This document shows positions 2,939 through 16,435 of a DNA stretch of 32,000 nucleotides, in pieces (positions within the stretch are counted from its first letter, which is position 1; every line of letters begins with the position of its first letter). The stretch is from Prochlorococcus sp. MIT 0801. GTDB lineage: Bacteria > Cyanobacteriota > Cyanobacteriia > PCC-6307 > Cyanobiaceae. A program made the translations under genes and the position numbers. The stretch lies in assembly GCF_000757865.1 (NCBI RefSeq), contig NZ_CP007754.1, forward strand, positions 1,200,001-1,232,000, written 5' to 3'. The notes below the pieces were generated by a model. That model made no database searches. It was not told the DNA's origin and was given only the letters and a program-made list of their open reading frames with translations.

Positions 2939-3289
2939 TTACAACCCCACTGCTTCAATTCGATCAATTACGTCACTAAGATTTTTTGCATATTGCTCGT
3001 GTATTCGGTGCTGTTCAAAAGTGATCTTGATTAACTCTTTCTTTCTGTTGAGGTTGGCTTCGGCTAGAGCTGTATAACCAGTTTGTAATTCTTGAATTTG
3101 TGAAACTAGCGAATAATTCTGAGCGGTTGTCTCGGCTAAATGCTCAATAACGAAATTGAAATCAGCTTTGCTCCACTTTTTCATTAAGTAATTTTTTAAA
3201 TCCTCAACAGTCAGATTGGTTAGGATTGGTGCAGGGTATTCGGACTTCTCGTTTTCTTGTGACGAGGGGCCTTTTTTTTGTGATGTCAT
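2939..3289 (-). CDS. Hypothetical coiled-coil protein of the element (116 aa from ATG 3289; 118 aa from TTG 3295)
   Basis: The ORF is packed between the HTH gene (stop 3292-3294) and the VirE gene (start 2936), with 2-nt gaps on both sides. The sequence is heptad-like and Q/E/L-rich. No family recognised. Confidence 0.55.
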   Translation of the reverse strand: MTSQKKGPSSQENEKSEYPAPILTNLTVEDLKNYLMKKWSKADFNFVIEHLAETTAQNYSLVSQIQELQTGYTALAEANLNRKKELIKITFEQHRIHEQYAKNLSDVIDRIEAVGL

Positions 3290-3291
3290 TT

Positions 3292-3603
3292 TCAAGCACC
3301 CATTTTTTGATAGGTGGCTATCCCTTCGGCTGCTGTAAGAGGAGCCTCTTCAGTAATTTTTGTTTGCTCAATTTGCCAATTTCTAATTTCGTCAACATTG
3401 AACAAAACAGTTGAAGCTTTTTTGCCAGTGCTATACAACCAATGCTTGCCAGCTTCTAATTCACAAGTATTTTTGAGGCTCCACAAAGTTGCCTCAGACA
3501 TTCCCAGCATTTTTGATGCTTGAGATTTTCCAAACCAAGAAATCACTATTAAATAAGTAGTACCGATTATTTGAGACCCGCCCTTTTTCCTCCGTGGAGC
3601 CAA
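3292..3603 (-). CDS. Small HTH DNA-binding protein, excisionase / AlpA-like
   Basis: 103 aa with a TTG start; there is no in-frame ATG upstream of the HTH. ..SQASKMLGMSEATLWSLKN..GKHW..VLFNVDEIRNW resembles MerR-superfamily excisionase/AlpA regulators. It is the first well-supported gene of the leftward operon next to the tRNA. Confidence 0.55.
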   Translation of the reverse strand: MAPRRKKGGSQIIGTTYLIVISWFGKSQASKMLGMSEATLWSLKNTCELEAGKHWLYSTGKKASTVLFNVDEIRNWQIEQTKITEEAPLTAAEGIATYQKMGA

Positions 3604-3832: not shown

Positions 3833-3953
3833 AAGCTAGCTTGATAAATTCCAATCTGCAACAACATATTTAAAAGTCTTGGGAAAAACTAGAAGAATTC
3901 AGGCTGTCACTAGACGCTTTTCCCAATTTTTTCCCAAACTACAATTTCCCATT

Positions 3954-3980
3954 AAAAAAGACAGGCTGGGAAACCTGTCT
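3954..3980 (-). terminator. Rho-independent terminator of tRNA-Pro
   Basis: On the minus strand: AGACAGG-tttcccag-CCTGTCT followed by TTTTTT (plus-strand A-run 3954-3959). It begins 9 nt after the tRNA 3' end. Confidence 0.6.
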
Positions 3981-3988
3981 ATGACTGA

Positions 3989-4062
3989 TCGGGGCGACAG
4001 GATTCGAACCTGCGACCTAGTGCTCCCAAAGCACCCGCGCTACCAAGCTGCGCCACGCCCCG
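3989..4062 (-). tRNA. tRNA-Pro (anticodon UGG)
   Basis: The reverse complement folds by hand into a cloverleaf: CGGGGCG TG GCGC AGCTTGGTA GCGC G GGTGC TTTGGGA GCACT AGGTC GCAGG TTCGAAT CCTGT CGCCCCG A. Length 74 nt, GTTCGAAT T-loop, no encoded CCA. Confidence 0.93.
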
Positions 4063-4378
4063 TCAACCAAGATTGTAGCCCCTGATAGCTGCTAAGAAAA
4101 TATAAATTCCCTAAAGCTTGACTCAATAATGATCAAATAGAATCATTTAGAGAGTTTTGTCACTCGCTATCTATCTAAAGAAAGTTAATGAATAGCCAAT
4201 AAAGACGAATTAAAACGGCGAGACTATGAACGTGAATATTCTTATAAAAAATAGACTATGAAAGTCATCTGTTCATTCGAGAAGGGAACTGCTTAAGGAT
4301 TTCCAGATTTTCATGTAAAGATCATGTACCAAAGATATCCAGTAACACTATCCTCAGTGTATATTCGTAATGATTTAG

Positions 4379-4555
4379 ATGCCACCTACACCAGATAGGA
4401 CGTTTATTTACTCCGAAATCATCCAGCATACAACTTTGGAACTAATGACCAAGCTGACCGAATATCCATCTCCAGAGAAGCAAGAAGCACTTATAGAAGC
4501 TCAGCGAAGTAATGCAGAAGTGAGGGTGCTAAGAAAGCAACCGAATATCTTATAA
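4379..4555 (+). CDS. Hypothetical 58-aa protein
   Basis: ATG 4379 to TAA 4553-4555. Translation: MPPTPDRTFIYSEIIQHTTLELMTKLTEYPSPEKQEALIEAQRSNAEVRVLRKQPNIL. Below the track cut-off. It lies inside the segment bracketed by the 12-bp direct repeats. Confidence 0.3.
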   Translation: MPPTPDRTFIYSEIIQHTTLELMTKLTEYPSPEKQEALIEAQRSNAEVRVLRKQPNIL

Positions 4556-4614
4556 GCACCCCATTTTAATATTTCCTTATCACTCGCTATCACTCATTAA
4601 GGGTTTGTCGCATT

Positions 4615-4638
4615 AAAAAAGCCCTGCTACTACAGGGC
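4615..4638 (-). terminator. Terminator-like hairpin downstream of the orphan tRNA-Pro 5' half
   Basis: On the minus strand: GCCCTG-tagtag-CAGGGC followed by TTTTTT. It is preceded on the plus strand by CATTAAAAAAG, the same context as the genuine tRNA terminator at 3951-3960. Confidence 0.45.
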
Positions 4639-4658
4639 TGTTGCTTGTCTAAAATTCC

Positions 4659-4699
4659 GCTCCCAAAGCACCCGCTCTACCGAGCTGCTCCACGCCCTG
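4659..4699 (-). pseudogene. tRNA-Pro 5'-half fragment (anticodon loop to 5' end); a copy of the upstream flank continues to ~4775
   Basis: gctcccaaagcacccgCtctaccGagctgcTccacgcccTg aligns to 4022-4062 of the intact gene with 4 mismatches. The following ~75 nt (4700-4775) align to the flank at 4063-4140, for example gatagctgc and ataaattc. Confidence 0.8.
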
Positions 4700-4909
4700 T
4701 CAATTAAGATCGTAGCCACTGATAGCTGCCAATAGAAAATAAATTCTCAAAAATTTTGACTAATAATAATGAATTACAATTTTGCAATGATTTTTTGACC
4801 TTATTTTTCAAGCTTTCCTACAAAACAATATTTATAAACATCTAAAAAAATATAGTTTTTTTTTAGATTCCAAGAACTATTTTTTGAGGAATACTAAGAC
4901 AAATTCTGA

Positions 4910-5899
4910 TCAATTACATATAGGGACTTCTGCAATACCCCAATTGTAAGGCCAATAAGCATCATCTTCTAATCCATAATATTCTTTAGGGTTGACTGGT
5001 TCTTGCCACCATCCATTTAATCCCCCATGTCTTTCTGCATGACCAGAGGGATCCTTCATTAACAAATGGAAACCTCCTGCTTGTCCACTCTGATGATATT
5101 GATTATTCCAGCCACCTTGCCCTGCCCCATAGGGGGATTCAAAATCTTCATCTAAATCATTACCATTAGCCCAATTAAAATCACCTTCAGAATCTGAACT
5201 CAATCCAATCCAAGCTCCTGCACGAAGTCCATCTCCCCAGTTAGGATCAGGCGAAGACAACTTATCTGTATAAGTATCTATTAAATACTGATTCTCATCT
5301 GTGTTATTTGGAGTCGTTAAAAAGCCACCTAATTTCTGGGCGTTATCATTAGCCTCGGTCCATGATGAACCTTTGATTAAAACATAAGCCGAACACCCTC
5401 TTTTAGATAAAGAGTCGGGCATTATGACATCAGCATTTTTGATTATCAATCCTTCAAGAGACTGGTCATCAGAAGAACCACAAATTGCATTTAAACAAGC
5501 ATTAAAGTTTATTCCACTTAACCCTTTAAATGAATATGACAAAAGATTTGTACTAGCCTCAAGAATAAATGAAGGAAAAACCGATGAATTGCTTGGGGTA
5601 GCGCTAATTAATCCATTTGATTGATTACCACTACAACTATTTGAACCATCAGATTGGATTTGATAAGAATTTAAATTGCTTGAAGTAAATGTACCTGCGT
5701 TACCCGTATCAATTCTATTAATTTCACATTCAGTTTGAATTTGTTTCATTGCTGCCAATGCAGCAGTCGCCTGAGCTTTTCTCTGGAAGCAGCTAAACGT
5801 GGGGATTGCAATCGCAGATAGGACTGCCAGTACAGAAACAACAACTACTAGTTCAATCAAAGAGAATCCTTCTTCTTTTAAGTGATTCTTTAAAACCAT
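4910..5899 (-). CDS. Type IV prepilin-like N-terminus fused to a C-type-lectin-like C-terminal domain (paralog 1)
   Basis: 329-aa ORF. Prepilin signal KEEG|FSLIELVVVVSVLAVLSAIAIP (Gly-1, Phe+1, Glu+5). C-terminal ~170 aa: GCSAYVLIKGSSWTEANDNAQKLGGFLTTPNNTDENQYLI..GAWIGLSSDSEGDFNWANG..VPICN. This has CTLD hallmarks: W-x-EA, GG-x-L, WIGL and a terminal Cys. Confidence 0.7.
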   Translation of the reverse strand: MVLKNHLKEEGFSLIELVVVVSVLAVLSAIAIPTFSCFQRKAQATAALAAMKQIQTECEINRIDTGNAGTFTSSNLNSYQIQSDGSNSCSGNQSNGLISATPSNSSVFPSFILEASTNLLSYSFKGLSGINFNACLNAICGSSDDQSLEGLIIKNADVIMPDSLSKRGCSAYVLIKGSSWTEANDNAQKLGGFLTTPNNTDENQYLIDTYTDKLSSPDPNWGDGLRAGAWIGLSSDSEGDFNWANGNDLDEDFESPYGAGQGGWNNQYHQSGQAGGFHLLMKDPSGHAERHGGLNGWWQEPVNPKEYYGLEDDAYWPYNWGIAEVPICN

Positions 5900-6096
5900 T
5901 GGATAATAGATCTAAGGCATTAAATGTATTGTTTTTAATTCTGGCTAAATAAAAAAATGTCGACTAACATTTATAGTATATCTATACAAAACGTGTTCTA
6001 TTTATAGCTTTACAAACTAGAGACTCTGGCCTCTATCAACTATCAAGAAATCCTTGGGCACTAAAAACAGTGAATAAGTTAATAAATCCTTTATTT

Positions 6097-6139
6097 GACA
6101 GATAGTGATTTCGAACTGCGACCTAGCGTTCCCTATGCA
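6097..6139 (-). pseudogene. tRNA-Pro 3'-half fragment (acceptor/T-arm to anticodon loop)
   Basis: gacag[atagt]gatttcgaactgcgacctagcgttccctatgca aligns to 3996-4033 of the intact gene. The T-arm GATTCGAAC..GCGACCTAG is well kept. It sits 16 nt below the stop of the second pilin-lectin gene. Confidence 0.7.
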
Positions 6140-6154
6140 AATCAAATATGGCTT

Positions 6155-7090
6155 TTAATTACATGCTAGCTCTACCATTCCTTGTCCATCATGTCTTGTA
6201 GCAGGGAAGTCATTCCATGTGATGTCTCCGTTTTGTTGTATTACAAGTGAGCTGAAATTACCATCCCAGTCCATTCCTTCACCTATGCCCCAGAAGCCAG
6301 GGCGATAAGAAGAACTTTCCCCTGAGACCCAACCGTCTGAATGACCTGCAGCATTTTGAAGCTTCTCGCCTGTATCACCGCTTCTTGTGAGACCAATATG
6401 TATATTTCTAACCCCCCATGAATCCTGTGGGATATTTTGCCCAATCTCTAGATAGGTTTCAGCTATCCATCTATCCTCTGCCTCATCATTAATTGTGACC
6501 AAATTACCTCCAATTGCTACTGCATTCGCCTGAGCATCACTCCACTTTGGTCCGTCAACTAAGACATAGCATGAATTATTTCTCTTGAAAAAAGTGTCTT
6601 TTTGTACAAATTCATAGGATTCTAATTCAGTCTGAAATTCCGTTGTACTCCCAGCATTTCCATTAAAACAAATCATACTTAAACATTTCGAGAAATCAGT
6701 TCCTGTCTCCCCTTTAAAGCTATATGTTAGTTGACTATTGTTAATAGCCAATATGAAAGTAGGTAATAAGTTTGTATCGTTTGGTATTGCACTAATCAGT
6801 CCGGTTTCCGAGACACCTCCGCAACTGTTACTGCTAGTTCCATCTGATTGAATCTGATAAGAATTTAAATTGCTTGAAGTAAACGTACCTTCGATACCCG
6901 TATCAGCTTTATTAATTTCACACTCAGTTTGAATTTGTTTAATCGCTGCTAAAGCAGCAGTTGCTTTTGACTTACGCTGAAAACAATTGAAAGTAGGTAC
7001 TGCAATTGCAGATAATACAGAAAGCACAGAAACTACAATTACTAGCTCAATTAATGAAAAGCCTTTTTCTGATTCATTTTTCATAATCAT
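6155..7090 (-). CDS. Type IV prepilin-like N-terminus fused to a C-type-lectin-like C-terminal domain (paralog 2)
   Basis: 311-aa ORF. SEKG|FSLIELVIVVSVLSVLSAIAVP. C-terminal: SCYVLVDGPKWSDAQANAVAIGGNLVTINDEAEDRWI..IHIGLTR..GDITWNDFPATRHDGQGMVELACN, including a CTLD-like WND motif and terminal Cys. The first ~145 aa are clearly homologous to paralog 1; the lectin-like part has diverged. Confidence 0.7.
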   Translation of the reverse strand: MIMKNESEKGFSLIELVIVVSVLSVLSAIAVPTFNCFQRKSKATAALAAIKQIQTECEINKADTGIEGTFTSSNLNSYQIQSDGTSSNSCGGVSETGLISAIPNDTNLLPTFILAINNSQLTYSFKGETGTDFSKCLSMICFNGNAGSTTEFQTELESYEFVQKDTFFKRNNSCYVLVDGPKWSDAQANAVAIGGNLVTINDEAEDRWIAETYLEIGQNIPQDSWGVRNIHIGLTRSGDTGEKLQNAAGHSDGWVSGESSSYRPGFWGIGEGMDWDGNFSSLVIQQNGDITWNDFPATRHDGQGMVELACN

Positions 7091-7290
7091 TAGGACTAGG
7101 AAATAATCAAACTTATTTATTAACTTTAATTCTGGCTAAAAATTTAAATAATTAAACTATTTAAGCTAGAAATTATATAATCATTAAATTATTGTCACCT
7201 AAAAGCCTAAAAACTTGGCAAAATTATTTTAAGTTTTTACTTATGAAGTTATTTGGGAATCAATCTGTCGAATTTATCAAAACCGAATGA

Positions 7291-7362
7291 TCAGAAGGAC
7301 AAGATTAAAACATGCGGTCTAGCTCTCCAAAAGCATCCGCGCTGCCAAGCTGCGCAACGCCT
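7291..7362 (-). pseudogene. Full-length but decayed tRNA-Pro copy
   Basis: tcagaaggacaagattaaaacatgcggtctagctctccaaaagcatccgcgctgccaagctgcgcaacgcc aligns end-to-end with 3989-4060. The acceptor and T-arm pairing are destroyed. The left flank (atgatc) also resembles the genuine flank (ctgatc). Confidence 0.7.
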
Positions 7363-7585
7363 AACTTACGAAATTGATCTTAAGGCTTCAATGATGCTTA
7401 AGTACAAGAATTAAAAAACACAACCAAATACACCCGTGTAAAAAGCATTAGTCAGGTTCTCTTCTTGGTAAGTTTGAGCATTGCAGTTAGAAAAATCAGA
7501 AAAAACCTGACACATTTAAATTTAGCCCAAAAAACTATGAACTCGTGGTAATTCCTCCCAATAGCTAAGATTAAAACTGTTAACA

Positions 7586-7756
7586 GTGAATCCTTTGGCC
7601 CCTCATTTAGATCACCCTTTCTTAGTATTTACTTGGCACTTACTTGTAGGGTACCTTCTCACTGTTAGTTGTGACTGGAACTGGATTCCTTTGAATAACG
7701 AGGAGAAAAAGAGGGGTCCATCTCTAGATCAAATTAGAGGTAAAATATTTAGCTGA
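7586..7756 (+). CDS. Possible 56-aa single-TM protein or gene remnant (GTG start)
   Basis: (M)NPLAPHLDHPFLVFTWHLLVGYLLTVSCDWNWIPLNNEEKKRGPSLDQIRGKIFS. It is open from the TAG at 7565-7567 to the TGA at 7754-7756 and has no ATG. It lies in a locally GC-richer patch in an AT-rich context. Below the track cut-off. Confidence 0.3.
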   Translation: MNPLAPHLDHPFLVFTWHLLVGYLLTVSCDWNWIPLNNEEKKRGPSLDQIRGKIFS

Positions 7757-8076
7757 AAAGTGAACAAATAAAAAACTTTTACTCGAGAAACAGATGTATT
7801 AATTAAAGATTAGTTTAATAGTTTTTAGGAAGTTGATAAATAAAATTGCTCAAAAGGTAGGAAAAGCTCATATCTCCTTTAATTGTAATAGCATTAATAT
7901 AAGTAAATGAAGTTATTTATTTGATTTTAAAAATGTTTTTTCTCTAAAAATATTTAATAGGATAATTTTATAGATTCATTAAAACACATTTAAAAAATTA
8001 GTCATTTTTCTCTCCTTTTTTAATCACAGAAAAGGGAAAATCCTTTCATAATAAATGTATCTATTTAAGTTAGTCA

Positions 8077-8475
8077 GTGAAACTGATACCAAATTTTGCT
8101 GAATTGCTGCATGACGTAAAATTACCAACGGCTGAAAAATGCTTTTTTATTGAAGAAGGCGATGAAAAGTACATCGAGAAATTGATAAGTAAAGGAGAAC
8201 TCACATGCGACTTAGAAAAACTCTTCAATTGGATCAACCTAGAGTACAAACTGAAGAAAAAAAATTTAAATAACGAAGAAAGACAACTTGCTGAAGAAGT
8301 AAAAAAGAGATTCCCTGTGGACAAATGGCGTGTTATAAAAATCTTTAGTGATCATCAACAAAAATATCGATACTACAAAAAGGCAATTGAAGACGTGAAA
8401 AGACGAACAACTCCTCGTATGAACGAACAAGCAATTATGACTATTTTCAGCCCAGGCCGGGGTATAAATACCTAG
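8077..8475 (+). CDS. Hypothetical 132-aa K/E-rich protein (GTG start)
   Basis: Track ORF. The opposite-strand ORF 8070..8324 is an S/F-rich low-complexity mirror image. No family recognised. Confidence 0.45.
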   Translation: MKLIPNFAELLHDVKLPTAEKCFFIEEGDEKYIEKLISKGELTCDLEKLFNWINLEYKLKKKNLNNEERQLAEEVKKRFPVDKWRVIKIFSDHQQKYRYYKKAIEDVKRRTTPRMNEQAIMTIFSPGRGINT

Positions 8476-8517
8476 GTATGGTATAATTACTTATGAGTTA
8501 TTAAACATTTGAATTTC

Positions 8518-8610
8518 ATGATTAATAAGTATCCCTTGATTCCTTTCCTTATTTTCGCCGGAGCACTAGTAAGCACAGCAACAATTGGTTTGCCAGTATT
8601 TGCTGGATAA
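8518..8610 (+). CDS. Possible 30-aa hydrophobic peptide
   Basis: MINKYPLIPFLIFAGALVSTATIGLPVFAG. An extended -10-like TGGTATAAT ends at 8487, about 30 nt upstream of the ATG. Confidence 0.25.
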   Translation: MINKYPLIPFLIFAGALVSTATIGLPVFAG

Positions 8611-8988
8611 TTACAACAAAACCAAAAATCTCTCCAAACAAAAGATATTGCCCTTTAACTTAAATAAAGAAAAAAAAAGAAAATAGTATTCAACTTTATT
8701 TTAATTCAATACGAATATAGTTAAATAAATTTTTTTTATTTAACTTTAATATTATTTCTCTAAAATTGCATACCAATAATTAAATAGAAAATACGAAGAG
8801 TATAAAAATATCCCTAGGTAAACCCAATTAAGCCACTCAGGCCGCTTATTACCGGTAGCCATTAAATCTAATTAATATACTATCAATATATTATACTTAT
8901 ACATATAAGGTTTGACTCTTAGCTGCTAAAGCTTTACGTTAATTCTAAAAGTTAAAAACCAAAAGTAATTACATAAGGGGAGGTATTT

Positions 8989-9489
8989 ATGAAAAAACAA
9001 TATAAGTTTCTCCAAAAGCACACGAATGAATTCATTACCACTTTCAAAAGTTTAAGAGGAAACATATGGTCATTAAACTTTCCAGTTTTTCTTTTTGATA
9101 GAGATTGGTTCAGGCTCAAAAAAATTACCCTTTATGATTTAGCCAAAGAACTTAAACCAGACAATTCACAGGAAGCACCTGAAATAATTCAATATCAACA
9201 ATTACTCAATGATGGTCACGATCATTTACTTGCAATTCAAGAATGTTGGAACGAATTTGGAATTGAAGATTTTCATCGATCCCTTAGAAACTCTTCTGAG
9301 TGGAAATTAAAAGGAAATAATGGATGGACATTCAAAAAATACGCTGAACTTATAACTGGATATAGAAATATTATTGAAAGCAAAGAAATTCTTATACCAA
9401 TAATTATTTTAGGCAGGAATAAAAATGAAGATCACCAACTTGAATGGATAAGCGAAGAATTCATTTCTGAACTTACATTCGCAGATTAA
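8989..9489 (+). CDS. Hypothetical 166-aa soluble protein
   Basis: The strongest SD in the island (AAGGGGAGG, 6 nt before the ATG). Non-repetitive composition. No family recognised. Confidence 0.65.
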   Translation: MKKQYKFLQKHTNEFITTFKSLRGNIWSLNFPVFLFDRDWFRLKKITLYDLAKELKPDNSQEAPEIIQYQQLLNDGHDHLLAIQECWNEFGIEDFHRSLRNSSEWKLKGNNGWTFKKYAELITGYRNIIESKEILIPIIILGRNKNEDHQLEWISEEFISELTFAD

Positions 9490-9519
9490 AAATATAGAAA
9501 AGCTTTATATAAAGAAGTT

Positions 9520-9696
9520 TCAAGCAATAGTTAAATCATCCGATCTCGTTCCCCACTCTGTATCTTCCAAAAGATCAGAGTAGCAAGAGGCATTTACCAA
9601 GTTATATTTTTGAAATTTCCAATCTGAATCTTCAAGGTAATCTGAGTACTCAAATGTTTTCGCAAGAAGAGAGAATTCCTTACTAAAAGGGCACAT
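9520..9696 (-). CDS. Possible 58-aa acidic protein
   Basis: MCPFSKEFSLLAKTFEYSDYLEDSDWKFQKYNLVNASCYSDLLEDTEWGTRSDDLTIA. ATG 9696, TGA 9522-9520, with an upstream in-frame TGA at 9717-9715. Convergent with 8989..9489. Confidence 0.3.
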   Translation of the reverse strand: MCPFSKEFSLLAKTFEYSDYLEDSDWKFQKYNLVNASCYSDLLEDTEWGTRSDDLTIA

Positions 9697-9867
9697 GGAG
9701 ATTATGCAATTTTTTCAATCATTCACACTACCAGGGCTAAAAGCAACTGAATATTATAATTCCTAAATATTTAGATAGAATAATTAAGTAGCAAAACAAG
9801 GAATTACATCAATTTAAATGAAAGCCTGTAATAGAATATTTAACGATAAAGACCTCTTTAAAAAACA

Positions 9868-10158
9868 ATGGGTTACATCAAAAAGGAAAAGCAAGGAGAA
9901 TTTGATTTCGAGAAGCTCCCTGAGGGTATATATTTCTTTTCAGGCAAAGAGGGATTCGTAAAAGTAGAAGTAAATAAAGATGGACATCAGTCTTGGGATT
10001 TACAAAATTGGTTTGACTCTTTAGATCCAGACAAAGATGAGGCGCAACATCAAAAAACAATTCAAGACATCAAAAGAAGATTAAACGCAGATACTGGAAT
10101 TATTAATCCCTCTGAAAAACAGGAGAAGAAAAAATTTTTAAACCTCTTTAGCAAATAA
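9868..10158 (+). CDS. Hypothetical 96-aa protein
   Basis: Track ORF with an ATG start and a K/E/D-rich, non-membrane sequence. No family recognised. Confidence 0.5.
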   Translation: MGYIKKEKQGEFDFEKLPEGIYFFSGKEGFVKVEVNKDGHQSWDLQNWFDSLDPDKDEAQHQKTIQDIKRRLNADTGIINPSEKQEKKKFLNLFSK

Positions 10159-10171
10159 GCAAACTCTAAAC

Positions 10172-10513
10172 TTATTCAAGAAATAGAAATATTCGATTTA
10201 CCGCTAATCCAATTAGAAAATATCTTAACAATGTACACCAAGCATATAAATATACACATTGATAATCTGTCTTTGAGACTTCTTCACCTTTGTGAATTAA
10301 TAAAAGATTAAATCTATAATTTGAATTATTTTTAACAAGAAGAACGACACATAAAACTAATGATACCAAAACATTCTCATTCAAAAATAAAATGAAGGCA
10401 ATAAAAAAAGATATATTTGAAATCAAGTCAATTAATGGAATAAATGTAGCAGGCAAAACCAGAAGATTAGAAAAAATATATATAACTCTGCTATAATTTA
10501 GCCAAGAAGACAT
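10172..10513 (-). CDS. Hypothetical 113-aa multi-pass membrane protein
   Basis: Track ORF with 3-4 hydrophobic segments, in very AT-rich DNA. Confidence 0.4.
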   Translation of the reverse strand: MSSWLNYSRVIYIFSNLLVLPATFIPLIDLISNISFFIAFILFLNENVLVSLVLCVVLLVKNNSNYRFNLLLIHKGEEVSKTDYQCVYLYAWCTLLRYFLIGLAVNRIFLFLE

Positions 10514-10770
10514 TTTCTAAGATAAATATATATCTATCTTTAGCAAATAATTAAGCTAATGGCAATTTTTCAAGTCAAAACTCATTAAAGGGTAAATGAA
10601 TAAGCTATAAATAATCTAACCTATTAAGAGAAGGCAGAAGTCAATAATAGGAAATACAAGGTATGTACAGAAATATAAGGTATTTGTCTAACATGTCTTT
10701 ATATGTATTTTTTTTCATAAATCTAAAAAAGCCTTTAAAGAAGTTAATATTAAAGTAAAGAACTAATAAA

Positions 10771-11016
10771 ATGGAAATATTTCTGCTTCTTTCTTTAATC
10801 CTTTTAACGGTTTTTTTTGTTTTCAAAAAAGTTTTTTATTCGGCAAAGAGAAATCTTTTCAAGAATCAAGCGGAATGGTTTAGCAAAGATATAAAAATAA
10901 AATACAGTAAATCAAAAGAAATTTCAGCATTAAAAAAGCATGATAACTATCTAAAAATAATTGCTGACGAGTCAAAATGCTTTTTAGACGAACAATCAAG
11001 TCAAGATTATGAGTGA
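10771..11016 (+). CDS. Hypothetical 81-aa protein with an N-terminal TM helix
   Basis: MEIFLLLSLILLTVFFVF followed by a K-rich tail. Confidence 0.4.
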   Translation: MEIFLLLSLILLTVFFVFKKVFYSAKRNLFKNQAEWFSKDIKIKYSKSKEISALKKHDNYLKIIADESKCFLDEQSSQDYE

Positions 11017-11067
11017 AACCTATTAAATTAAACTATAAAAAAACAGAAACTCTCAATTTAATTAAAA

Positions 11068-11304
11068 ATGTACTATCAATTATTATTCATTAATAATATA
11101 TATTTCCTTTTAATAAAGAATATTTTACTTGATATGACGATAAATAATCCTATTTTCATTTTTGCACTCATAATAGTTATTTGGTTCATTCCAGGAATTT
11201 TAGTTAGAAGGATTAATGAATTAAAACAGATAAAGAAAACTAAAAAGAGACAAGCTGATGCTATTAATAAACTATATCCAAATCCAAAAGATTCTTCTAA
11301 TTAA
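11068..11304 (+). CDS. Hypothetical small membrane protein (78 aa; 56 aa if it starts at ATG 11134)
   Basis: TM helix IFIFALIIVIWFIPGILV followed by a basic tail, RRINELKQIKKTKKRQ. Confidence 0.4.
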   Translation: MYYQLLFINNIYFLLIKNILLDMTINNPIFIFALIIVIWFIPGILVRRINELKQIKKTKKRQADAINKLYPNPKDSSN

Positions 11305-11492
11305 CTAAAAAATGATATTGTATTTATTAAATTTTAGACTATAAATAAACAGATTTTTAGAATATTAGATCTTTGTGTAAAGTGACTTATGTTGTTTTAA
11401 TATTAAAGCAAAGTCATCAAATATATATCTTTTAATATTAGAAGTATTTTTTAGATATAATGAGTTAATCTAATAAGAAAGAGATTCTGTTG

Positions 11493-11768
11493 ATGATGGT
11501 AAGGAAGCTAGGACAATATGGTGGCTACTTACTTAGTGGAATATTAATAGCATGGCTAATAAATCCAATAGCAGCGCTAGCTTTTCTTGAGATTTTTCTA
11601 AAAATGACGTTATTAATATCTATTCCTATCTCAGGAGCTTATTTGTTAGAAAAGATTATCCTTTTAAAGCATCAAAAAGCATGGAATATAATTCTTCCTA
11701 CATGGATAATATTAAGTATCTATTTCAGTTTCAGGTTAGTTAAATTAATAGAAAGCCTTATTGATTAA
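11493..11768 (+). CDS. Hypothetical 91-aa three-TM membrane protein
   Basis: ATG 11493 (the track start, TTG 11490, is one codon upstream). TATAAT at 11456-11461. Confidence 0.45.
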   Translation: MMVRKLGQYGGYLLSGILIAWLINPIAALAFLEIFLKMTLLISIPISGAYLLEKIILLKHQKAWNIILPTWIILSIYFSFRLVKLIESLID

Positions 11769-11996
11769 ATATTTATATCTTTTTTTAAGATTATTGAGGA
11801 ATTATGTTTTATGAATAGATAGTTAATTTATTTGGCGATTATAAATTTATTCTAATCTAATCAGACAATTACGAATTCAAAAAATTATTTTCATAAAATC
11901 AAGAATAGTACCTAATTTTATTCATTCATAAAATCCATAGCATTTCTAGAAGTTAAAATATCCGACCTTGTCGAAAGAATTCATGCTTTATGGATA

Positions 11997-12272
11997 ATGA
12001 TTAATACAGTAAAAAATTTGAACAACATGGTGCTTCCTTTTCTTACTGCAATATTTTTCCCTGATTATGGTTATCAGGGTATTCCCTGGGATTTGTACTT
12101 ACTTCATTTTTTCTTCTTTGCGATTGTAATTCCATTTCATGTAATTATTTTTGCTGCCCGTAGCGCTCAGACCGTCAAGCCAAACGGAGTAAAGGACTGG
12201 CTTAAGTGGGAATCCAAGGCAACTAAAGACGACTTGGATTCAATGTTTCCAAACGATTTCCCTACCGCTTAA
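11997..12272 (+). CDS. Hypothetical 91-aa membrane protein
   Basis: Two hydrophobic segments followed by a charged C-terminal tail. Confidence 0.45.
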   Translation: MINTVKNLNNMVLPFLTAIFFPDYGYQGIPWDLYLLHFFFFAIVIPFHVIIFAARSAQTVKPNGVKDWLKWESKATKDDLDSMFPNDFPTA

Positions 12273-12376
12273 CTCTCTAAAAAGCCTTTTAAAAATGTCC
12301 GAATTTATCAAGGTGCTACAACTTCATTAAATTTGGGCAATTTTAGGTTTATATATATACCTGCATCTAAAAAAAA

Positions 12377-12520
12377 ATGCTTCATTTGCCATTCTTAACC
12401 TTTGCTTTAGGAGGGGGAAGCCTCTCAGCAACAATTGTCGGTGTTGGATCCCTAGTTCTCTTTGGACTTGTTGGTGTAATTGCTGGGCCAAATCTTTCTA
12501 AATTTGATTCTGAAGCTTAG
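12377..12520 (+). CDS. Possible 47-aa Gly-rich hydrophobic peptide
   Basis: MLHLPFLTFALGGGSLSATIVGVGSLVLFGLVGVIAGPNLSKFDSEA. Below the track cut-off. Confidence 0.3.
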   Translation: MLHLPFLTFALGGGSLSATIVGVGSLVLFGLVGVIAGPNLSKFDSEA

Positions 12521-12953
12521 GGAGATAGCCATTATTTCAAAAAGCTTTTGCTAAGCTTCCCAAATAGACATATTTTTAGATTTTAAAAATCTATCTAGGG
12601 AATCCAATTCTTTAACAGAACTTTCTTCCATCAAGAGTTTTAACCTTGGTGGAATTTTTTTATATACATTTGCCAAAAAATACCTCAAAATCCATTACAA
12701 AATCTATGAAAATATAGATAAAATGGGACCTCACAGAGACAATCAAAATAGTAAGATAGATTAGTAAAACTTATAGCTTCTATGATCGTCTATTATGAGG
12801 CTTGATTAGTTGCAGCTCTGACTTATAAATTATTAATAAATTAATTTACAAAGTTTAATTAAATGGAAATGAATCCTTATAAGCCTTTGATACAAGCTTT
12901 TAAAAAAATCTACAAAAACTTCAAGTAATAGATCAGGAAAATTTAATGTGCAG

Positions 12954-14480
12954 TTAATGTGCCGATTTAAATTCCCCACCTCTTCCCCCAGCTTCTGATG
13001 CTTGTCCTATTCGAGAAAATAAATTCAAGCTTTCATCATTTAAATTAATAACTTCAACCTCAGACCCCCCTAATTTTATTCTTCTAATTACTTGGTCAAG
13101 AACCGTAACGCCGCTTTGATCCCAAATATGGGCTTCTGCCATATCTATTGTAATTTTTTTAGGATGTTCATGTAGTTCAAAACCTTGTCTAAAGTAAATG
13201 CTACTAACAAAAAATAATTGGCCTGAAACTTTATAAATCCTGTGATCTGCACCATTCAAAGAAGACTCAACCTTAATAACTTTTGCGACCTTTCTACTAA
13301 ATAATATTGCTGCAAGTCCAACACCGGAAAGAAGACCAAGAGCTAAATTATGTGTAATAACAGTTACGAATACAGTCAATATCATAACTGAACTATCGCT
13401 TCGAGGAATTCGGCGAATATCTTTAATTGATATCCAATTAGCAGTATTTATAGCAATCATTATCATAACCCCAACCAATGTTGCCATTGGTATTTGATTT
13501 ACCCAATCCTTAGCCGCAAGAATCATCGCTATTAAACAAACGCCAGAGCTTAATGTTGAAAGACGAGTTCTTCCCCCATAACCCACATTCATAACCGATT
13601 GTCCAACCAAGGCGCATCCAGCCATCCCTCCAAAAAGCGAACTAACAATATTTCCCATACCTTGCCCTCTAGCCTCAACATTTTTATTAGTACTTTTATC
13701 AGTCATATCATCAAGAATATCTTGAGTCAGGAATGTCTCCATAAGGCCAACCAAAGAAATTGCTAGTGCTGTTGGAAGTATCAAACCAAGTGTTTCAAAA
13801 TTAAATGGAACTTTTGGAATACCAAAGCTAGGCAATCCATTTGGGAGAATTCCTAAATTCGATACAGTTGGAACATTTAATTTAAATAAAATTGAAATCG
13901 CTGTACAAATAAAAATCGCGACCAATGCAGATGGCAAAAGCTTAGTAAATTTAGGTAGCAAATAGATAATTAACAATGTAAGTATGGTCAAGCCCCAAAC
14001 AGCAGGTACTTGGACTGCAGCAACAACTTTCTCAGAATGTGCTAGGTCGATTCCTAAATGAGGCAATTGAGCAAGGAAGATCAATATTGCTAAACCATTT
14101 ACAAAGCCATCCATAACCGGTTGAGGTACAAATCTCATCTGATGAGCAAGCCTTAAATACCCCCAAGCAATCTGAAGAACTCCCGTAAGCAATCCAGCAG
14201 CCAAAAGATATTGCAGACCAAGGCCAGGGCTAATATTTTCACCCTGTTGAACAATCCCGGTCATCAAAAGAGCAGTTGAACCAGTCACTGAGGTAATCAT
14301 GGCCATTCTGCCCCCAAAAATTGCAAGGGTGACAGAAAGCAAAAAAGCACCAAACAGCCCAACTCTTGGATCAACGCCTGCAATACCAGAAAAAGCTATC
14401 GCCTCTGGGATCATTGCGAATGCAACAACAAGACCAGCAATAACATCGCGGGAAGGAGAGACGATTCTCTCCTTTACCAT
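12954..14480 (-). CDS. SulP-family anion (sulfate/bicarbonate-type) permease with a C-terminal STAS domain
   Basis: A ~510-aa polytopic protein. RDVIAGLVVAFAMIPEAIAFSGIAG is the typical SulP N-terminal motif. The C-terminal soluble domain (..YKVSGQLFFVSS..VINLNDES) is STAS-like. ATG at 14480; an in-frame TTG at 14498 is the track start. Confidence 0.9.
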   Translation of the reverse strand: MVKERIVSPSRDVIAGLVVAFAMIPEAIAFSGIAGVDPRVGLFGAFLLSVTLAIFGGRMAMITSVTGSTALLMTGIVQQGENISPGLGLQYLLAAGLLTGVLQIAWGYLRLAHQMRFVPQPVMDGFVNGLAILIFLAQLPHLGIDLAHSEKVVAAVQVPAVWGLTILTLLIIYLLPKFTKLLPSALVAIFICTAISILFKLNVPTVSNLGILPNGLPSFGIPKVPFNFETLGLILPTALAISLVGLMETFLTQDILDDMTDKSTNKNVEARGQGMGNIVSSLFGGMAGCALVGQSVMNVGYGGRTRLSTLSSGVCLIAMILAAKDWVNQIPMATLVGVMIMIAINTANWISIKDIRRIPRSDSSVMILTVFVTVITHNLALGLLSGVGLAAILFSRKVAKVIKVESSLNGADHRIYKVSGQLFFVSSIYFRQGFELHEHPKKITIDMAEAHIWDQSGVTVLDQVIRRIKLGGSEVEVINLNDESLNLFSRIGQASEAGGRGGEFKSAH

Positions 14481-16363: not shown

Positions 16364-16435
16364 TGGGTCGCCTGAGATTCGAACTCAGGACCAGCCGGTT
16401 AAAAGCCGGATGCTCTACCACTGAGCTAGCGACCC
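16364..16435 (-). tRNA. tRNA-Lys (anticodon UUU)
   Basis: Reverse complement: GGGTCGC TA GCTC AGTGGTA GAGC A TCCGG CTTTTAA CCGGC TGGTC CTGAG TTCGAAT CTCAG GCGACCC A. Length 72 nt, good cloverleaf. Confidence 0.93.

Follow-up and report, generated by a model that had tools for sequence, protein, structure and literature searches.

Copies of tRNA-Pro in a Prochlorococcus genomic island as probable attachment-site scars of repeated integration at the anticodon stem-loop

Introduction

How did one stretch of Prochlorococcus DNA come to hold an intact tRNA-Pro gene together with three damaged copies of it? The question is raised by a 32,000-nt stretch of Prochlorococcus sp. MIT 0801 (GCF_000757865.1, contig NZ_CP007754.1, positions 1,200,001–1,232,000 of the forward strand). 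This whole stretch, referred to below as the window, carries an intact tRNA-Pro(UGG) gene at 3989–4062 on the minus strand, and the three copies, called (a), (b), and (c), lie at higher coordinates. Our analysis indicates that the copies are very probably the attachment-site scars of at least four site-specific integrations by tycheposon-type tyrosine recombinases, with the anticodon stem-loop as the core of the site.

Prochlorococcus is the most abundant phototroph of the ocean, and the ways in which its flexible islands acquire genes are still under study. The preprint that describes tycheposons lists tRNA-Pro(tgg) among seven island-associated target tRNA genes and reports elements that are flanked by full and partial tRNAs, with stacks separated by partial copies (Hackl et al., bioRxiv 10.1101/2020.12.28.424599). 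It also describes members that resemble phage-inducible chromosomal islands (PICIs) and carry primase and capsid genes, degenerate remnants in islands, and a distinct clade of tyrosine recombinases, and it proposes that most island DNA is flanking material brought in by imprecise excision. The locus analyzed here belongs to this tycheposon/tRNA-Pro island system of Prochlorococcus and is thus of a described kind.

Materials and Methods

Positions within the tRNA were numbered t1–t74 along tRNA-Pro, and the compared loci were labelled L001 onward. tRNA genes were called with ARAGORN and Rfam, and protein domains were assigned with Pfam. The similarity of the copies was assessed by blast E values and by z scores of local alignments against shuffles. 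For the census of breakpoints, one genome per species was scanned for the exact tRNA-Pro 5′ half, which yielded 120 picocyanobacterial loci. The scan for clusters of arm motifs took in loci L001–L126, including all of the approximately 120 genome loci. The loci related to the window derive from Prochlorococcus single-cell genomes.

Results

The intact gene was called by ARAGORN (anticodon tgg) and by Rfam (64.7 bits). Its anticodon stem-loop, t28–44 (4019–4035, minus strand), is the putative crossover core, as suggested by the core coordinates together with the breakpoint census described below, and a terminator scan placed an intrinsic terminator hairpin 3′ of the gene (3959–3980, minus strand). 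Neither ARAGORN nor Rfam called copy (a), (b), or (c) as a tRNA, and Rfam gave no match at E ≤ 1 in the tRNA fragments or the cassette arms. Formal pairwise alignment, which the original prediction had suggested as a check, demonstrated that all three extra copies are significantly similar to the intact gene.

Copy (a) showed the strongest similarity. The segment 4659–4795 aligned to 4022–4158 with 77% identity over 137 nt and no gap (blast E, 8e-29; z = 46). Its tRNA part is an orphan 5′ half, t1–41, with four mismatches (4659–4699, minus strand), and it forms the attachment junction attL (left junction) of a 637-bp cassette. Joined to it is U′ (4700–4795, minus strand), an older upstream region that is 77% identical to U, the upstream region of the intact gene, and that has a weakened −10 box, TACGAT, at 4709–4714. 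The four mismatches had been counted correctly in the original prediction, and the upstream flank, put there at approximately 75 nt, extends to 4795, giving 96 nt of homology.

Copy (c) aligned from 7285 to 7361 with 3983–4059 at 78% identity over 77 nt (E, 1e-14; z = 21). When placed in register, it occupies 7291–7364 on the minus strand, and not 7291–7362 as first described, and it has 19 mismatches in 74 positions. These are divided between t1–41 (8/41) and t42–74 (11/33) without significant difference (Fisher p = 0.19); copy (c) is therefore a uniformly decayed full-length tRNA-Pro, unbroken at the anticodon. It lies at the ancestral position of the gene, as shown below. A description of copy (c) as a hybrid junction with a more decayed 3′ part was dropped once the correct register had given these values.

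Copy (b) is the weakest of the three. It is an orphan 3′ part that aligns to t30–67 with three 1-nt gaps (84% over 31 nt; E, 0.025; z = 7.7), and it begins 15 nt past the stop codon of the second of two pilin-lectin genes. The prediction of a 3′ half held, and the alignment gave 6101–6139 on the minus strand instead of 6097–6139. Direct reading of the sequence before copy (b) revealed no 5′ half. Within a repeat unit of 1194–1196 bp, copy (b) and the 3′ part of (c) occupy the same register, and the start of (b) at t30 is where orphan 3′ halves begin in other genomes; these two features make it credible as a tRNA copy. The end of (a) at t41 and the start of (b) at t30 overlap on the anticodon stem-loop. 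The proposal that both fragments end in the anticodon loop or stem was thus borne out, and its extension to all copies fails for the full-length copy (c).

The ancestral position of the gene was determined by synteny with relatives. The conserved upstream flank of the ancestral tRNA-Pro, which lies outside the inserted material (7365–14468), is common to six related Prochlorococcus loci with 78–87% identity over up to 6.6 kb. It is collinear over 5–6.6 kb in L009, L025, L107, and L019 and is also present in L125. In L009, L019, and L025, an intact tRNA-Pro is located exactly at the position of copy (c), beside the same flank. On this synteny, copy (c) marks the original gene site, and the approximately 3.3 kb at 4022–7290 represent inserted material, with the working gene rebuilt at the far end of the insert. 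The segment 3949–4062, which holds the terminator hairpin and the whole tRNA, is 93–98% identical to its counterparts in L009, L019, L025, and L125 and now lies 3.3 kb from copy (c).

The relatives also differ in what they carry at this site. In the three loci with the gene at the position of (c), the tRNA adjoins the flank directly, and other cassette contents were found at the same site in L086, L070, L107, L125, L152, and L154. In L125, a more distant relative, one pilin gene and other DNA lie between the same flank and the tRNA, and a badly eroded trace alone is left where copy (c) would be. An identical arrangement in all relatives had been named in advance as a ground for giving up the integration hypothesis; since the locus is polymorphic, this objection falls away. 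The region 7000–12500 within the flank is very AT-rich (GC, 23–31%) and has small open reading frames (ORFs) without family matches, which gives it an island-like appearance. It is collinear and 78–87% identical in four relatives and is therefore regarded as conserved flank and not as recent cargo.

The part of the insert nearest to the working gene, 4022–4658, reads as one integrase-less unit of 637 bp, composed of a P′ arm, a body, and a P arm with a promoter and the tRNA 5′ half. The P arm (4063–4171, minus strand) contains U (4063–4158) with a −10-like TACAAT at 4072–4077, and a motif search located the arm motif GATAGCGAGTGACA at 4158–4171 (minus strand). U is 91–93% identical to the regions upstream of the full tRNA in L070 and L086 and is also conserved in L151, L152, and L154. 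The cargo (4172–4576, plus strand) includes a 58-aa ORF at 4379–4555 (plus strand), and it showed no Pfam match and no similarity to the cargo of other cassettes. The P′ arm (4577–4658, minus strand) is conserved at 67–88% in L086, L107, L151, L152, L153, and L154, where it directly follows an orphan 5′ half. It holds two GAGTGATA repeats (GAGTGAYA; 4578–4595, minus strand; motif search), a terminator hairpin found by the terminator scan (4620–4639, minus strand), a core-adjoining junction of type AGAACTTGAGACAAGC, and the sequence TTTTTTAATGCG. Terminator hairpins are thus located 3′ of both the intact gene and copy (a).

Complete units at the same site measured 637 bp in the window, 780 bp in L152, 1023 bp in L154, and 1113 bp in L086, and L070 had a unit of about 222 bp that consists of arms only. 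Across this family the arms are 67–90% identical, and no similarity was detectable between the bodies, which hold unrelated small ORFs, one of them encoding a zinc-ribbon protein. In other genomes and in metagenomes, too, these arms are found around unrelated cargo. The arm repeat differs between units and agrees within each: GAGTGAYA in the window and L154, GAGCGAYA in L152, and GGGCGAYA in L153. Clusters of the arm motifs were found only at these cassette arms in loci L001–L126. A degenerate pattern of U and U′ had no match in genome contigs or viral contigs, and occurrences of the arm-repeat pattern in 24 viral contigs were set aside as chance, none of these contigs having tRNA-Pro parts.

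None of the cassette units contained an integrase or a remnant of one, with no similarity at E ≤ 1. On the same result, the 58-aa ORF and the cassette bodies were rejected as candidate integrase remnants. Because they encode no integrase, the cassettes must be moved in trans, if they are mobile at present. The original prediction that an incoming element supplies a new 5′ half and promoter is supported by the complete cassettes, which have an orphan 5′ half at one end and the full gene at the other, and by a viral contig in which the attachment site of the element (attP) is made of the 5′ half beside an integrase. The P arm also has an outward-facing promoter-like site (4118–4146, plus strand; TTGACT, 17 nt, AATCAT/TAGAAT). 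This site is conserved in L070, L151, L152, and L154 and faces the cargo, away from the tRNA; in three of the four complete cassettes, the cargo ORF is oriented for reading from it.

The orphan 5′ half has kept its upstream region with a promoter, and the conserved terminator hairpin at 4620–4639 lies within 20 nt of it. Owing to this arrangement, a short transcript of the tRNA 5′ half plus the arm could be made.

The census revealed a rule of polarity for the tRNA fragments. Where an orphan 5′ half and a full gene occurred on one stretch (18 cases), the half was always upstream of the gene, and 34 of 36 orphan 3′ halves were located downstream, always in the same orientation. The two exceptions, L041 and L119, have 3′ fragments upstream of the gene, as with copy (b). 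The 5′ halves terminated at t42 in 20/30 cases, and the 3′ halves began at t29 in 17/36 and at t25 in 9/36. The block common to the orphan halves is t29–42, GTGC-TTTGGGA-GCA(C), in which the 7-nt anticodon loop lies between inverted stem arms. This block has the form of a tyrosine-recombinase core site, and the crossover would fall within it. The anticodon loop had been proposed as the crossover sublocation, and the recurrence of the stem-loop as a common breakpoint in dozens of genomes is consistent with that proposal.

Two further arrangements were observed in the census. In L041 (1836–2017) and L007 (6373–6525), an orphan 5′ half is followed approximately 100 nt later by a short tRNA-Pro fragment (t39–71 or t22–42), in both cases upstream of the full gene; these pairs may be minimal or collapsed cassettes. 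The exact tRNA-Pro 5′ half was also present in metagenome bins labelled Sphingobacterium, Tabrizicola, Bifidobacterium, and Klebsiella (L022, L047, L103, and L108), most likely as a result of binning contamination.

Candidate integrases were identified beside tRNA-Pro in other genomes. In L119, L115, L064, L082, and L102, a divergent tyrosine recombinase gene is located approximately 200 nt upstream of the full gene in divergent orientation, with direct repeats between it and the tRNA upstream region. The family gave weak matches to Pfam Phage_integrase, and its profile matched an XerC-like structure (1.6e-6) and XerH. Its invariant columns include arginines, histidines, a lysine, and a tyrosine, and they are compatible with a tyrosine recombinase. 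In IMG/VR, 13 of 15 relatives of the integrase were located 100–170 nt from a partial tRNA-Pro, which spans t26–31 to t74 in 11 contigs and t1–41 or t1–45 in two. A search of viral contigs for relatives of the L102 integrase failed to find any. In L003, phage genes and the repeat TAGGCCGC occur on both sides of the tRNA-Pro 5′ half, and this site is therefore read as an attP built on a 5′ half. Direct repeats occur on both attachment arms and covary within elements, and they are predicted to be arm-type sites. Since the IMG/VR relatives stand beside either a 3′ or a 5′ part of tRNA-Pro, it appears that one integrase family acts on one core with two attP designs, of which one restores the 3′ half and the other, for which a promoter is needed, the 5′ half.

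The material on either side of the 637-bp cassette was also characterized. The 3′ side of the gene (lower coordinates) is occupied by a satellite-like element, as originally predicted, with all genes on the minus strand. It encodes a VapE-like primase/helicase (1632–2936; Pfam VapE-like_dom, 2.2e-61), whose homologues in the tRNA-Pro islands L008, L100, and L063 are 43–46% identical, and a fusion of a prohead protease and a major capsid protein (1–1152; Peptidase_S78, 2.5e-9; Phage_capsid, 3.7e-20), of which the first 384 codons lie in the window and the rest runs off its left edge. An identical element contig in SRR29904083 has a fusion product of 533 aa. Two small ORFs of 118 and 103 aa (2939–3603, minus strand) stand at the position of an excisionase/regulator module and had no Pfam match. 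In L025, a homologue of the 103-aa ORF (44% identical) lies immediately downstream of tRNA-Pro, and the equivalent ORF in L008 gave weak HTH_17/excisionase matches. Between these ORFs and the terminator are two direct repeats, TTGGGAAAA, 11 nt apart (3918–3937, minus strand), which are putative arm-type sites of the 3′-side element. Six relatives each have a different direct-repeat pair at the same place after the terminator, and such pairs would look like the arm sites of different 3′-side elements.

A VapE and protease-capsid element with 43–54% protein identity to that of the window was also found in L008 (1574–7716) and L100. There it follows an orphan 5′ half on the 5′ side, whereas that of the window follows the full gene on the 3′ side. 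In the Logan run SRR12829168, exact matches of the window's SulP, PdxJ, and pilin-2 proteins were recorded; for the VapE protein of the window, the sole recorded run is SRR29904083, in which pilin 2 occurs as well. The satellite-like element may thus be present in one population and absent from the other, although absence from the record is no proof.

Beyond copy (a) lie the two pilin-lectin genes. Paralogue 1 (4910–5899, minus strand; 329 aa) contains N_methyl and Lectin_C (C-type lectin) domains according to Pfam, and paralogue 2 (6155–7090, minus strand; 311 aa; N_methyl) is the cargo between (c) and (b). The two share 80% identity across 231 nt with an offset of 1194 bp, and the lone pilin gene that lies between the flank and the tRNA in L125 is 72% identical to pilin 1 at the DNA level. 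The family comprised 238 homologues at E ≤ 1e-5, including several paralogues in Prochlorococcus MIT0801, and none of the 120 tRNA-Pro loci contained a pilin homologue. Pilin 1 and the MIT0801 paralogue P0025 had no exact match in look-ups. The segment between the pilin-1 stop codon and U′ (4796–4909) has no recognizable attachment core and contains a 28-nt inverted repeat at 4823–4885; as its resemblance to a cassette P′ arm is only vague, a core is not claimed at this junction. Pilin-lectin genes occur elsewhere in tandem arrays of two or three (L155–L159), twice beside a T2SSE-type ATPase, and these arrays had no tRNA fragments. Many metagenome contigs with pilin-lectin genes are just 1.2–1.4 kb long, as if assembly breaks at flanking repeats.

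GC content across the window ranged from 23 to 41%, and from 16.6 kb on, ordinary core genes were found (trmFO, a response regulator, pdxJ, recC, and a recB-like helicase). A tRNA-Lys(ttt) gene (16364–16435, minus strand; ARAGORN, Rfam) marks the boundary between the AT-rich region and these core genes, trmFO onward.

Discussion

The history of the locus can be reconstructed with two kinds of element that would share the anticodon core. The 3′-type elements would carry a 3′ half with a terminator, settle downstream of the gene, and leave orphan 3′ halves there. The 5′-type elements would carry an upstream promoter region with a 5′ half and settle upstream, so that the orphan 5′ halves they leave keep the old upstream region. 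In the window, a 3′-type pilin-2 cassette of about 1.2 kb, ending 15 nt past the stop codon, would have entered between (c) and (b). A pilin-1 element would then have followed, with a P′ arm that resembles a 3′ half and is now copy (b) and with a P arm made of U′ and a 5′ half; this would have produced a second complete gene 2.6 kb downstream and made (c) redundant, after which it decayed. The integrase-bearing element of L119 has the same design as this proposed pilin-1 element. Subsequently, the 637-bp cassette would have split the second gene, leaving (a) with U′ and supplying the present U and 5′ half, and the satellite-like element with VapE and capsid genes would have entered on the 3′ side.

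Four site-specific events at one core yield the observed map without deletions and thus offer the most economical account, in which the first two events can be swapped. The register of 1194–1196 bp shared by (c)/(b) and the pilin genes fits two related cassettes. The suggestion that (c) with (b) represents an older tRNA with a classical 3′-side island around pilin 2 fits this reconstruction, and the view that several independent insertions took place and that the tRNA gene was rebuilt at least once is supported as well.

Some observations weigh against this account. Copy (b) is short and by itself of marginal significance. The 32-kb window contains no integrase or remnant of one, no integrase that reads GAGYGAYAA arms was found, and the same strain yielded no excised circle or empty site. 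The 3′-side element extends past the edge of the window, which puts its orphan 3′ half out of view. Other orders of events, or a history based on deletions, give the same map. Furthermore, pilin genes form tandem arrays elsewhere with no tRNA pieces among them, so the pilin pair may owe something to ordinary gene duplication.

These points bear on several other explanations. Pure segmental duplication with unequal homologous recombination, without any site-specific step, would draw on the tandem repeat unit of 1194–1196 bp, which contains the pilin genes, and on the tandem arrays just mentioned. We consider it very improbable as a source of the copies: the breakpoints at t29/30 and t41/42 match those in dozens of other genomes, and the cargo between the copies is unrelated and flanked by conserved arms. 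Copy (b) also resembles the true tRNA (84%) more than it does the 3′ part of (c) (about 61%), which argues against a simple duplication of (c). That the similarities are chance matches in AT-rich DNA is scarcely conceivable, although the E value of (b) taken alone would allow the thought; the z scores of 46, 21, and 7.7 against shuffles, the consistent register of the copies, and the recurrence of the same architecture across genomes all contradict it, and for (a) and (c) it is already refuted. The regions U and U′ might also be chromosomal flanks of tRNA-Pro from a donor, acquired by imprecise excision as in specialised transduction and lying outside the cassette proper. Such an origin would accord with the imprecise-excision model of the preprint and with the weak likeness of U, U′, and the ancestral upstream region, which share a −10-like box at equal distance from the gene. 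We judge it improbable, since the U type is always followed by arm repeats and variable cargo and never by a conserved chromosomal gene, whereas conserved synteny goes with the ancestral flank type (..GAAGCCTTAAGAT..), which differs from U.

Repeated site-specific integration at the anticodon core is thus preferred as the origin of the copies. It is tentatively suggested that the 0.2–1.1-kb units form a true cassette system of integrase-less single-gene modules, shuffled in trans at the anticodon loop. One arm would bear the tRNA-Pro promoter with the 5′ half and the other a terminator, both arms would have covarying recombinase-binding repeats, and the movers would be tycheposon-type or chromosomal tyrosine recombinases. 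The units could instead be deletion remnants of larger integrase-bearing tycheposons that decayed independently at the site, with ends that look conserved only because they are lost last. The preprint does report degenerate elements and partial tRNAs dispersed in islands, no cassette has an integrase, and the unit of about 222 bp in L070 consists of arms only. This origin nevertheless seems rather unlikely: in five units neither arm is truncated and the boundaries fall precisely on the core, nothing is shared among their bodies, no integrase fragment lies beside the P arm, where the gene is placed in integrase-bearing relatives, and motif covariation within units is unexpected under independent decay.

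The tycheposon work explains integrase-bearing elements and leaves most island DNA to the imprecise-excision route. The locus described here shows, base by base, how one essential tRNA gene has been entered from both sides via what appears to be one core, and that a working tRNA gene can combine a half supplied by an element with an ancestral half. The tiny integrase-less cassettes with complete arms and interchangeable cargo, together with the explicit two-polarity anatomy, represent a modest new variant. If the cassettes are moved in trans, they would constitute a simple, testable unit of gene gain, and their attachment sequences would offer a set for site-specific tools in a genetically difficult organism. 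If they are a true cassette system, they would represent an integron-like route of gene capture, alternative to the imprecise-excision model, that could explain part of the large share of Prochlorococcus island DNA outside recognizable elements. The locus serves as a clean case study and gives a testable lead on the acquisition of integrase-less island DNA.

Compared with described tycheposons, all inserted material likewise abuts tRNA-Pro(tgg) or its fragments, and the units are flanked as expected, with the 637-bp cassette between (a) and the full gene and pilin 2 between (c) and (b). A replication module occurs in the left element only (VapE with protease-capsid), and the units between (c) and the gene have neither this module nor an integrase. 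A tyrosine recombinase of the tycheposon clade was not found within the 32-kb window or the cassettes, and the left element runs off the window. That element shares the VapE-type primase, the protease-capsid fusion, and the adjacency to a tRNA with PICI-like satellites, as far as it can be followed before the window edge cuts it off. Satellites of this type are also characterized by an integrase, genes that redirect capsids, and reliance on a helper phage. In its available portions, the preprint text does not appear to describe attachment-site-bounded integrase-less single-gene cassettes with covarying arms, an explicit two-sided use of one anticodon core at one gene by one family, or a working gene that stands 3.3 kb away from its ancestral position.

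Integrative elements that use the 5′-distal part of a tRNA gene have been reported (Zhao and Williams, 2002, and archaeal cases, as cited in PMC6563490). Such an element restores the 5′ part of the gene and must bring a promoter, and it is described as considerably less frequent than one that targets the 3′ part (PMC6563490). The cassettes described here likewise restore the 5′ part with a promoter, but this is a routine second mode in the sampled loci, with 30 orphan 5′ halves, and it appears to be served by the same integrase family as the 3′ mode.

The putative core described here is symmetric, with stem arms around a 7-nt loop and repeats in both flanking arms that may be recombinase-binding sites, and the crossover would lie within it. 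In the classification that Williams is said to have made in 2002, the anticodon loop is one sublocation used by tyrosine integrases that target tRNA genes. The classical examples of this class are phages and islands that restore the 3′ part. In attachment sites of tyrosine recombinases generally, inverted repeats flank the 6–8-bp overlap region of strand exchange, and arm-type repeats are located on both sides of attP.

The cassettes may also be compared with small non-autonomous elements. Cis-mobilizable elements (CIMEs) and mobilizable islands are bounded by attachment sites and moved in trans by the integrase of a related element. The cassettes resemble CIME-like elements and integron cassettes in their small size, the usual presence of one ORF, the lack of a recombinase, the sites at their ends, and their stacking at one site. 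Their structure fits that of CIME-like elements, and mobilization in trans would make the likeness complete. Integron cassettes, in contrast, have the site attC, an imperfect inverted repeat that recombines as a folded single strand, and an adjacent platform of intI and attI, which the cassettes at tRNA-Pro lack; the ends of the latter are instead tRNA-derived with arm repeats, and each carries half of an essential tRNA gene together with its promoter.

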